Positions 51,095 to 64,000 of a DNA stretch of 64,000 nucleotides are shown piece by piece. Every line of letters starts with the position of its first letter. The stretch's first letter is position 1. The notes below the pieces were generated by a model. The model had not been told where the DNA came from and made no database searches. It saw only the letters and a list, made by a program, of their open reading frames with translations. This stretch comes from Verrucomicrobiia bacterium (GTDB taxonomy: Bacteria > Verrucomicrobiota > Verrucomicrobiia > Limisphaerales > UBA1319): NCBI GenBank assembly GCA_963664225.1, contig OY760937.1, forward strand, positions 3,424,001 through 3,488,000. The letters are read 5' to 3'. The translations under genes and the position numbers were made by a program.

Positions 51095-51145
51095 CAACTC
51101 GTAGCGCAGACATCCTGTCTGCCGTATCGCGGATTTCCAATCCGC
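51095..51145. repeat. REP-like element GTAGCGCAGA...TCTGCCGTATCGCGGATTTCCAATCCGC (related copies at 57325, 61434, 61628, 63098)
   Basis: GTAG-headed double palindrome; 26-nt identity with 63092-63117. Confidence 0.8.
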
Positions 51146-61415: not shown

Positions 61416-61736
61416 GCGCCGTCACCGCAACTCGTAGCGCAGGTTTCCAATCTGCAAACGCTGAAATGCAAGAGCGCATTCCAATCTTCACGCGTCTGTA
61501 AAACCGCAAGTGGAGCGCCGGTCTCCAGACCGGCTTACCGCTCTGAACCCTCAGCAACCCAAAGCACAGTCACCGTTACTGCCGTTACGCAGCCACCCCA
61601 CCTGCTTGCGCATCCAAACCGCAACTCGTATCGCAGATTTCCAATCTGCAAACGCTGGAACGCACGGGCGCATTCCAAACTTCACGAGCGCGCAAACCCC
61701 AATGCTGCGCGCCGTCACCGCAACTCGCATCGCAGC
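61416..61736. repeat. Cluster of degenerate REP copies
   Basis: GCGCCGTCACCGCAACTCG twice; TTTCCAATCTGCAAACGCTG twice. Confidence 0.7.
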
Positions 61737-61846: not shown

Positions 61847-62707
61847 GTGACATGCAAGTTCCATCAAATGGTCTGTCTCGGCTTATGGCTGATTCATGCG
61901 GGAATTCCCCAGCATGCGCAGGCCGCGCTGGCGCCCGAAAAACTCTACCAAAAAGTGCTGCCTTCGGTGATGACCTTGGAAGTGGAAAACCAGACCGGGC
62001 AGAGGTTTGTAGGCAGCGCCGTGCTGGCCCGTGCAAATGATGTGGCGCTGACGGCCTGGCACGTCATCGCCGATGCGCGTTCCGTTTGGGCCGTGTTCGC
62101 TGACGGCCAGCGCGTCAGAGTGATTGGGTGCATCGACCATAACGGCGTCCGCGATCTGGCATTATTGAAACTGGAAAAGAAACTCCCCCGGCGACAGGCG
62201 ACTTTATGCCCTGACCTGCAATCTGTGGCGGCCCGGGCTTACGTGATCGGCGCACCCAAAGGTTTTGATTTTAGCATCGGCGACGGCTTGATCAGCCAGG
62301 TTCGGAGCATAAACGGATTTCTGCAGTATCAGCTTTCCTGTCCCATCTCTCCGGGAAATAGCGGGGGCCCAATCCTCAACAATCGTGGTGAAGTCATCGG
62401 CATTGTCTCGTGGACCAAGACGGACGCGCAGAACGTGAGCTTTGCCATTCCAGCCCGGGAATTCATGGGACTTAACGTTTCCCTGCCGCCGAGGACTTGG
62501 GGGGAAATGGCGGCCAGCGCAAGCTCCTTCCCGTCTCCCAAGTCGGGTAAATCGGGTCATAAACCGGCCATGATGTCCGAAGACGACGCCGATGCCAGAA
62601 CCTACGCAGCCTTCAAGAGTCGGCTCAAAGAATCCGCAGGCAAGACCGTGACCGTCGTTCTCCAAGAAGAAGCGCGAACAAACACATTCACGTTTACGGT
62701 CAAGTGA
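61847..62707 (+). CDS. Trypsin-like serine protease (S1C)
   Basis: LTAWHVI, DLALLKL, ISPGNSGGP. Confidence 0.9.
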   Translation: MTCKFHQMVCLGLWLIHAGIPQHAQAALAPEKLYQKVLPSVMTLEVENQTGQRFVGSAVLARANDVALTAWHVIADARSVWAVFADGQRVRVIGCIDHNGVRDLALLKLEKKLPRRQATLCPDLQSVAARAYVIGAPKGFDFSIGDGLISQVRSINGFLQYQLSCPISPGNSGGPILNNRGEVIGIVSWTKTDAQNVSFAIPAREFMGLNVSLPPRTWGEMAASASSFPSPKSGKSGHKPAMMSEDDADARTYAAFKSRLKESAGKTVTVVLQEEARTNTFTFTVK

Positions 62708-63132
62708 TAAATATCTGAATTGGCACATATTGGTTTCAATGCGTTACCACATTATAGGCCGGGTGCCCTCACCCGGCGTCCGTTGAATTGCCCCCCCGAA
62801 CGCCTTTCTCTGGGCGCGGCCTTTGAGGGTTTTGTATGGAGTCCCGTCTTTAGACGGCGCAGCATTCAAAAGGAGGGAAGTTTGAATATTTCTAACCCTC
62901 TCGATAATCCGATGACCTGCTCGAATTCGTAAAACCCACCATTATTCTATTTTCCAATCAAACGATTCCCTTCAAGCATCCCGGCAGGGATCGCAGACCC
63001 TTTTCAATGAGCTCGCGTCCCGCCCGGTCAATCGCAATCAAAATCTCCATCGGACCGCCACGTTTATCCACCTTCTTGCGCGTCCAAACCGCAACTCGTA
63101 GCGCAGACATCCTGTCTTGTATGTTTGAATTT

Positions 63133-63353
63133 GCCACTTGTTTGTTGGTTCGCGTTGAACAAGAAAGAAGTGGTGTCCCTTCCCCGCCTGCAGGCGGGGA
63201 AGGGACGGCGGACGCGTGTTCGTTCCAATCTTGGTCTGGTGAAAGCCAGACCGTACGGCAGCATGAATCGCGCTCGCCTTTGTCCGAAACTCGAACCGTT
63301 ACCAGAGCGGCGTGTTACAACGCCAGCTCGTATTTGCAAGAATGAGTCCGAAC
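63133..63353 (+). ncRNA. Putative IS110 bridge RNA
   Basis: 5' hairpin(s), then two stem/internal-loop/stem domains whose loops match the target REP and the element end; boundaries approximate. Confidence 0.8.
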
Positions 63354-63365
63354 AACTTTAATATT

Positions 63366-64000
63366 ATGACTGAAAAATCCGCCCCTGTCCATGTCGGTCT
63401 GGACGTCGCCAAGGCCACTCTCCAACTTCACCTTCCCGGACGGCTCCTGGACGTGACCAACGATGCGGCGGGGCACACACAACTGGTCCAATGTCTGGGT
63501 GCTGTGCCCGGTGCCCACGTGATCCTCGAAGCCACTGGCGGCTATGAGCGTGCCGTCGTGGCGGCACTTCACACGGCCGGTTTACCCGTCAGCGTGGTCA
63601 ACCCGGCCCAGACCCGTGCCTTCGCCCGCGCCACCGGCCAGCGGGCCAAGAGCGATCCGATCGATGCTGCCAGCCTGAGCGCCTTCGGCAAGGCCCTGGA
63701 GCCCGCTGCCACCACCGCCCCGACGCCAGCCCACACTGAGCTCACCGCCCTGGTGACCTGGCGCGAACAACTCAAAGATCTCCTGACCATCGCCAAAAAT
63801 CAGGCCGAACACCACGACTCACCCTTCGTCCGCACCGAACACGCCAAGCTGATACGGCATCTGGAAAGCCGTTTGGCCGCAGTGCTGGCCGAATTAACCG
63901 CCGCCCTGGCCCGCCACGCCGTCGAGCAAAAACAAGTCACCCGCCTGGCGGAAATTCCCGGCGTGGGGATGCTGACGGCCGTGACGGTAGTGGCGCAGAT
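63366..64000 (+). CDS. IS110-family transposase/recombinase, 3'-truncated by the window
   Basis: VGLDVAK, ILEATGGYE, VVNP...RAFA, AKSDPIDA, IPGVG..TA; missing from the ORF track because there is no stop in the window. Confidence 0.95.
   Translation, partial: MTEKSAPVHVGLDVAKATLQLHLPGRLLDVTNDAAGHTQLVQCLGAVPGAHVILEATGGYERAVVAALHTAGLPVSVVNPAQTRAFARATGQRAKSDPIDAASLSAFGKALEPAATTAPTPAHTELTALVTWREQLKDLLTIAKNQAEHHDSPFVRTEHAKLIRHLESRLAAVLAELTAALARHAVEQKQVTRLAEIPGVGMLTAVTVVAQ

Follow-up and report, generated by a model that had tools for sequence, protein, structure and literature searches.

An IS110-family element in a REP-like repeat of a Verrucomicrobiia bacterium, most likely an IS621-type bridge recombinase with readable target and donor guides

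Bridge recombinases carry, in the non-coding left end of the element, an RNA whose loops specify both the target and the element ends. An IS110-type recombinase gene that interrupts a REP-like repeat and is preceded by a strongly folded left end therefore raises the question of whether this left end encodes such an RNA, and whether the sites occupied by the element can be read from it. The locus is found at the end of the window, the stretch of 64,000 nucleotides analysed here (OY760937.1:3,424,001-3,488,000), from a Verrucomicrobiia bacterium; positions are window coordinates, and the part of the element beyond 64000 was read from the whole genome. The answer proposed here, to which we give a probability of about 0.9 on the basis of sequence comparison, is that the locus is an autonomous insertion sequence of the IS110 group, working as an IS621-type bridge recombinase. 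An initial annotation had already read it as a bridge-RNA recombinase targeting the REPs of this genome, and this reading is now supported by the homology to IS621, by the conserved fold of the left-end RNA, by the position of all five genomic copies in REPs and by the covariation between guides and flanks. The element and its surroundings are composed as follows.

51095..51140, + strand: REP-like double hairpin, intact and unoccupied, of the target subtype used by the window copy, ATCCTGT-CT-GCCGTA
63092..63117, + strand: left half of the interrupted REP-like repeat, with the left target ATCCTGT at 63109-63115 and the core CT at 63116-63117
63118..64314 (window part 63118..64000), + strand: IS110-family element of 1197 bp, with 314 bases beyond the window end
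63118..63124, + strand: left end of the element, right-donor half-site TGTATGT, read with the preceding CT; it matches the right donor guide under a discontiguous 7-base model with one G:T wobble
63366..64304 (window part 63366..64000), + strand: recombinase ORF, 312 aa, whose stop codon ends at 64304, beyond the window

The element is complete, belongs to the IS110 family, and its 1197 bp are inserted at CT within a REP-like double hairpin. On the left side, the REP identity put forward earlier is borne out: the 26 nt at 63092-63117 recur unchanged at 51095-51120 and close with CT, after which the interrupted repeat reads TGTATG and the intact one GCCGTA. On the right side, as read from the whole genome past 64000, the last bases of the element are ...ACACCGTTG-CT and the REP then continues with GCCGTATCGCGGATTTCCAATCCGCC. 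The right junction had been predicted as ACCGTTA-CT-GCCGTATCGC and is ACCGTTG-CT-GCCGTATCGC; the prediction stands apart from one base, a G being found where an A was expected, so that an ACCGTT-type left-donor sequence is present and the REP resumes behind it. The insertion of the 1197 bp was precise: when the flanks are joined in silico, they align straight over the junction to an empty paralogue just downstream, with 99.4% identity over 695 nt. A BLAST search found five genomic copies, all with ends at exactly 1 and 1197, of which four are 100% and one is 99.75% identical; the four 100% identical copies carry intact ORFs. All five read ...CT/TGTATG...GTTGCT/GCCGT, i.e., the CT core is present at both junctions.

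The 312-aa product contains an N-terminal DEDD RuvC-like domain and a C-terminal Tnp domain, matched above the curated cut-off by the Pfam models DEDD_Tnp_IS110 (PF01548; residues 10-148, 9.4e-18) and Transposase_20 (PF02371; residues 192-275, 8.5e-18). The same layout, a DEDD RuvC-like domain plus a Tnp domain with a catalytic Ser, is described for IS621, an IS110-group element of E. coli (PMC11208160; PMC11208158; PDB 8WT6). In a phmmer comparison, residues 9-303, essentially the full length, align with the IS621 transposase 8wt6_A (PDB 8WT6) at an E-value of 7e-34; the IS621 protein has 326 aa, and the identity, estimated by eye over the aligned region, is about 35-40%. The bridge recombinase ISCro4 / IS622 (PDB 9T56; bioRxiv 10.1101/2025.05.14.653916), likened by its protein only, shows full-length homology with an E-value of 8.4e-33. 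The composite active site of IS621 consists of D11, E60, D102, D105, and S241 (Hiraizumi et al., 2024, PMC11208158). In the phmmer alignment with 8wt6_A, on which positions were counted by hand, D13, E55, D97, D100, and S236 stand opposite these residues, i.e., all five catalytic residues are kept, and G237 is also aligned. The DEDD transposase that had been recognized downstream of the folded left end is confirmed by both IS110 Pfam domains and by the IS621 homologue. The exact 312-aa sequence was absent from a large protein collection in an exact-sequence look-up. A scan of GTDB species genomes returned 80 loci encoding relatives; the top one, encoding a protein with 70% identity, comes from a short contig of a Binatia MAG and is followed by Verrucomicrobiota (52-62%) and then by many Alphaproteobacteria (about 40-46% identity). 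The nearest relatives are mostly Verrucomicrobiota MAG records.

The left end, between the element boundary and the ORF, can be divided into the following predicted parts, in which family B denotes a related element of the same genome that is described below.

63133..63174, + strand: first left-end hairpin of the MFE fold, upstream of the conserved RNA model; a comparable hairpin exists in family B
63175..63206, + strand: 14-bp 5' stem-loop of the predicted bridge RNA, from the fold, with compensatory changes at 14 of 14 pairs in 53 distinct relatives
63207..63278, + strand: predicted target-binding loop domain, with outer stem, guides, inner hairpin, and handshake bases, from the fold and the consensus structure
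63223-63231, + strand: left target guide TTCCAATCT, supported by guide-flank matches
63232-63253, + strand: inner GAAA hairpin of the target-binding loop
63254-63261, + strand: right target guide TACGGCAG, supported by guide-flank matches
63262-63263, + strand: handshake dinucleotide CA of the target loop
63280..63355, + strand: predicted donor-binding loop domain, with guides, inner hairpin, and handshake bases
63295-63303, + strand: left donor guide ACCGTTACC
63330-63340, + strand: right donor guide GTATTTGCAAG
63341-63342, + strand: handshake dinucleotide AA of the donor loop

The hairpin at 63175-63206, TTCCAATCT at 63223-63231, the GAAA-capped stem at 63232-63253, and TACGGCAG at 63254-63261 all lie where the initial annotation had placed them, and the same is true of the donor-loop segments ACCGTTAC at 63295-63302 and TGCAAG at 63335-63340. 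Folding of the left end, which had been suggested as a check, gave for 63130-63365 a free energy of -106.3 kcal/mol (z = -6.83) and a 5' hairpin followed by two loop domains; none of 200 shuffles was as stable. The consensus of a seed of 14 left ends consists of one 14-bp hairpin and two subsequent domains, each made of a stem, an internal loop, and a hairpin, with compensatory changes in 27 of 45 consensus pairs. A covariance model, likewise a suggested check, was built from this 14-sequence seed and run over 86 loci, where it gave 81 matches at E <= 0.01. Seventy-nine of these lie directly upstream of recombinase ORFs, and the other two are short minus-strand matches at the palindromic hairpin. 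Over 53 distinct rows, 95.8% of the cells are paired, vs 68.8% in shuffles and 37-43% in slid controls, and changes on both sides occur in 40 of 45 pairs, in an alignment that was fitted to the model and favours its structure. The predicted architecture of the left-end RNA is conserved and covarying across relatives of the recombinase. An Rfam scan of 62000-64000 at E <= 1 gave no relevant match; the sole hit, Antizyme_FSE on the 14-bp hairpin, was rejected as a chance match (20.6 bits vs a gathering score of 40). Written in DNA letters, 22 nt of the target loop were absent from the seven searchable supplementary files of Durrant et al., a search that copies spelled as RNA would escape.

In the IS1111 group, the guide RNA is located in the right end, downstream of the recombinase ORF. 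A placement in this group was rejected: the stop codon ends at 64304 and the element at 64314, so that the only 10 nt beyond the stop codon leave no room for a downstream guide RNA, and the conserved RNA lies upstream of the ORF. The IS1111-group elements with a seekRNA share with the present element the recombinase superfamily and the RNA-guided logic (review PMC13604230). The layout of the left end is that described for IS621, namely an RNA of about 180 nt upstream of the ORF, predicted in the present case, with a 5' stem-loop and a target-binding loop followed by a donor-binding loop; further shared features are a 9-nt left target guide that includes the core, the CT core itself, a REP-type target, handshake positions, and a right donor guide whose pairing with 7 donor bases is discontiguous (PMC11208160; PMC11208158). 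Unlike IS621 as described in these papers, the element has other target and donor sequences and an extra hairpin (63133-63174) ahead of the conserved RNA.

The reading of the loops as guides predicts that they should change together with the DNA flanking each insertion. In the account of Durrant et al. (2024, PMC11208160), the left target and left donor guides have the sequence of the top strand, core included, while the right target and right donor guides are complementary to it. The four guide segments were taken from the model alignment, and the 60 of 81 rows with complete guide columns were kept; the 21 dropped rows are 12 loci of one multi-copy alphaproteobacterial element and five of another, all with gapped left-target-guide columns, together with two minus-strand partial matches and two truncated ones. 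Right ends were located through the first 7 nt of the left donor guide, with at most one mismatch, and were found in 50 of the 60 loci. Left ends were located with the discontiguous 7-base right-donor model in 48 of the 60, a search that partly imposes the CT at the left junction. Two other procedures were discarded: the last 6 nt of the right donor guide located left ends unreliably, with wrong sites in many distant loci, and was replaced by the discontiguous model, and in a best-of-window scan the left target guide gave too noisy a signal (6.97 cognate vs 6.19 non-cognate of 9).

At the right end, the core is CT in all 45 distinct relatives. The 6-nt right target matches its own guide at 4.82 positions on average, vs 1.79 for non-cognate guides, and the 7-nt left target at 5.0 positions, vs 2.04. 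When each guide is represented by one locus, the matching positions are 144 of 174 on the right side (n=29) and 117 of 189 on the left (n=27), and on each side none of 10,000 permutations reaches the observed value; guides and targets therefore covary, an expectation of the initial annotation whose failure would have counted against it. On both sides the match rate drops with the distance from the core, being 1.0, 0.96, 0.93, 0.84, 0.64, and 0.44 at right target positions 1-6 and 0.94, 0.90, 0.81, 0.83, 0.65, 0.56, and 0.31 at left target positions 7 down to 1. The right target guide thus matches over about 4-6 nt beyond the core, vs 2 nt as reported for IS621 (PMC11208160); the label "IS621-type" holds for architecture and homology, with a right target guide that is longer here.

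The donor loop reads the element ends in a similar manner. One G:T wobble apart, the right donor guide agrees with CTTGTAT, as anticipated for the pairing of this loop with the element end CTTGTA. The left donor guide, ACCGTTA-CC, matches the right end ACCGTTG-CT at six of seven positions, with a mismatch (A vs G) at position 7, and its core-binding dinucleotide is CC, not CT; in the family this dinucleotide is CC in 9 cases, CT in 8, AT in 6, CA in 3, CG in 2, and TC in 1. Among relatives, 14 of 18 distinct pairs show no difference between the right end and the opening 7 bases of the left donor guide, so that this element is unusual in its position-7 mismatch. Left donor position 7 is reported to be mismatch-tolerant in IS621 (PMC11208160). 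According to Hiraizumi et al. (PMC11208158), the two bases just 3' of the core-binding bases of each loop pair with the other DNA partner in a handshake and must not pair with their own DNA. In this element, the C of the target loop is complementary to donor G7 and the A of the donor loop to target T7. Across 38 distinct guide sets, complementarity between the handshake position of the target loop and donor position 7 is seen in 37 sets, and with the loop's own target in one; for the handshake position of the donor loop, it is seen with position 7 of the target in 28 sets, and with the loop's own donor in three. The handshake positions behave as in IS621.

The insertion position is common to the five copies of the genome, i.e., the same CT of the REP-like double hairpin GCAG..-LT-CT-GC CGTATCGC GGATTTCCAATCCGC. 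Their left targets are TTCCAAC (two copies), TTCCAGT (two), and ATCCTGT (the window copy), their right targets GCCGTA (three) and GCCGTT (two), and they match the guides at 6, 6, 6, 6, and 4 of 7 positions on the left and at 6, 6, 6, 5, and 5 of 6 on the right. The copies are therefore found at related REP variants, with flanks that resemble the target predicted from the guides, and not at the unrelated sites that would have told against the initial annotation. All five left flanks diverge outside the REP, and the right flank is similar in two copies; the REPs of this genome are embedded within longer repeated units. The entry of IS110 elements at one position of repeated extragenic hairpins is also known, by description, from ISPpu9 and ISPpu10 of Pseudomonas putida, REP-targeting elements with a target next to or inside a stem-loop (PMC12288879; bioRxiv 10.64898/2026.03.19.712850). 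For ISPpu10, the REP hairpin is reported to add specificity, and earlier work on REP targets of IS110 elements is cited by Durrant et al. (PMC11208160). That IS110 elements target REPs, and that hairpins at the target play a role, has thus been described before.

The two target guides together spell TTCCAAT-CT-GCCGTA. For this composite target, the occurrence of TTCCAATCT at 61445 and 61639 holds, whereas the composite itself is nowhere intact in the genome: as a 15-mer it has no site at 0 mismatches and one site at 1 mismatch in the whole genome. A census with the pattern GCGCAG-N2-LT7-CT-GCYGTN counted 30 empty and 5 occupied REP sites in the genome. Four of the eight sites with one mismatch to TTCCAAT are occupied, vs one of the 27 with two or more, and these small numbers point to an occupancy that follows the match to the left target guide in the expected direction. 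TTCCAATCT has five sites in the window, including those at 61445 and 61639, where shuffles expect 0.52 and none of 100 reaches five, and 79 sites in the genome, five of which are the elements' own guides. The remaining 74 have at most three of six right-target matches each, and none is occupied; well-matched left-target sites with poor right targets being all empty, a left-target match alone is insufficient. Sites with a perfect left target plus core are never used, and a site with three left-target mismatches and a perfect right target is used, so that the right target seems to carry more weight in target choice than the left one does. This used site is that of the window copy, whose left target ATCCTGT matches the guide at four of seven positions and the right target at six of six; it is the poorest-matched of the five insertions, and two of its three left-target mismatches concern positions at which 81-90% of relatives do match. 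It is similar to insertions of IS621 that have been described as off-target or "half-match" (bioRxiv 10.64898/2026.08.31.748434).

The same genome contains family B, five copies of a 1173-bp relative with about 70% nucleotide identity over parts of the element. Its ends are the same as those of the element (CT-TGTAT...ACCGTTG-CT), and its donor loop, in which the left guide is ACCGTTGCT and the right one ...TACAAG, matches them perfectly. The target loops are others: copies B1-3 have TTTCCTT-CT and the right target guide CGAGGAG, copies B4-5 CCATTCC-CT and TCGGGAG. The insertion sites of family B are pyrimidine-rich and not REPs, namely CCTCCTT-CT-CCTGGG (two copies), TTCCTTC-CT-CCTCCC, CAGCTCC-CT-CCCCGC, and GAGTTCC-CT-CCCTGC. 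Guides and sites match only in part (left side 4-5 of 7 positions, right side 4-5 of 6), and the core-proximal bases do agree with the guides. Between the two subtypes, 77 of 1173 positions are different overall, among them all seven non-core positions of the left target guide and three positions of the right target guide. The four identical copies of the element and this natural retargeting between family B subtypes lend indirect support to an RNA-dependent recombination that may be reprogrammable.

From these observations and by analogy with IS621, the following course can be proposed. The 312-aa DEDD/Ser recombinase would be bound by a non-coding RNA that comes from the left end, is some 180 nt long and spans roughly 63175-63355. 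The left target guide, UUCCAAU-CU, would pair with the target's bottom strand and the right target guide, UACGGC-AG, with the top strand, and the two would specify about TTCCAAT-CT-GCCGTA, a site in the 3' arm of the first hairpin of the REP-like repeat. The second internal loop would pair with the joined element ends ACCGTTG-CT-TGTAT, and recombination at the CT core would insert the element and leave CT at both junctions. The transcription of the RNA, the circular intermediate, and the strand-exchange chemistry are those expected from the work on IS621. On the + strand of the left end, a search for a sigma-70-like promoter found none, and the best hexamer pair across the circular junction, built in silico, is weak (8 of 12). 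The 23 public runs listed offer contigs only, and the fraction of sampled words present in the two RNA runs among them is only 0.07. All four public runs examined contain a joint from which exactly 1197 bases are left out, but this was rejected as a sign of excision, since it is explained by the empty REP paralogues of the genome. A back-joint of element length was not seen in the contigs of these four runs, and contigs drop rare forms.

Among the other readings, the one that fares best retains the bridge mechanism and assumes that the REP-targeting element is helped, or cross-mobilized, by the donor loop of family B, with target choice resting more on the right target. The shared ends, the perfect donor loop of family B beside the mismatch in the element's own, and the location of the IS621 loops in separate recombinase dimers make such cross-help conceivable, and we consider it unlikely; if true, it would represent a natural modular sharing of bridge-RNA halves between elements.

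Somewhat less probable still is a bridge-type element that is no longer self-mobile, whose copies were spread by duplication of the repeat units or whose imperfect donor loop needs outside help. The position-7 mismatch between the left donor guide and the element's own right end would fit this, as would the longer repeated units in which the REPs sit and the similar right flank of two copies. Against it stand the left flanks, all five of which differ outside the REP, the four 100% identical copies with intact ORFs, an occupancy that tracks the guide match, and the tolerance of IS621 for mismatches at left donor position 7 (PMC11208160).

A structured left end that acts only in cis, as DNA or as a 5'-UTR element (a recombinase binding site or a translational control), and that resembles the REP through a captured REP piece, is very improbable. 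It would accommodate that no transcript was seen in the contig-only public runs, that no promoter was detected in the left end, and that TTCCAATCT is itself a common REP 9-mer with 79 genome sites. Against it, in relatives with unrelated targets both loop segments change along with their own flanks, the stems stay paired through compensatory changes, as an RNA would be expected to show, and the handshake positions change in step with the opposite DNA partner; two enzymes whose structures were solved with a bridge RNA are, moreover, close structural-family homologues of the protein.

The autonomous bridge recombinase thus preferred appears to be a clear but ordinary further example of the bridge RNA recombinases described in 2024. 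It leaves the known mechanism unchanged, and confirms that the published model predicts junctions correctly from the raw sequence. It adds a compact bridge recombinase, of 312 aa in a 1197-bp element, with a readable code for target and donor, whose nearest relatives are mostly Verrucomicrobiota MAG records, far from the enterobacterial systems studied so far. Natural controls are built into the genome, namely five insertions graded by guide match and a sister family in which the same donor code is combined with re-written target loops. Finally, a right target guide that matches at 4-6 positions may attract interest in the engineering of specificity.

The genome carries a second family of IS110 elements (family B), which shares its donor ends with the 1197-bp IS110-family element of the window and has different target loops.

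Genome 1738419-1739591, outside the window: L002, a family B IS110 element of 1173 bp, with further copies L003-L006

All five family B copies (L002-L006), each of 1173 bp, lie outside the window. Their target loops occur in two variants, both unlike those of the window element, and their insertion sites are pyrimidine-rich CT sites rather than REPs, the REP-like double hairpins.

Features related to the window element and its REPs
Window ~62600-64000, continuing past the window end to ~65500: tandem repeat units of ~580 bp with REPs inside
Genome 3572930-3573005, outside the window, plus strand: truncated left-end remnant of ~73 nt, similar to the window element
Genome ~4456921, outside the window, minus strand: altered REP copy, GCGCAGAC-ACCGTTG-CT-GCCGTATCGCGG
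Window 63391..63363, minus strand: promoter-like site, TGGACA, 17 nt, CATAAT (10/12)

The REPs around the window element are embedded in the tandem units, and the flanks of the element recur almost exactly one unit downstream. The remnant is 98% identical to positions 6-67 of the window element, is preceded by GGTTTCCAAC-CT, and begins with TGCAGG, as against TGTATG in the window element. In the altered REP copy, which contains no element, the last 7 nt of the window element stand in place of the 7-nt left target; this copy could derive from a sixth element copy removed by deletion between GACA microhomologies, or else could be a recombination footprint. The promoter-like site, the sole consensus match within the window element, lies opposite the beginning of the recombinase ORF, in antisense orientation.

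A related recombinase was found in another genome.

L007: 1880-nt MAG contig labelled Binatia, a bin label perhaps unreliable because the contig is short; recombinase 70% identical to that of the window element

The predicted guides of L007 nearly equal those of the window element, the left target guide being TTTCAAT-CT and the right one reading CT-GCCGTC, and its insertion site is TTGCAAT-CT-GCCGTATC. This site is a target of the same kind as that of the window element.
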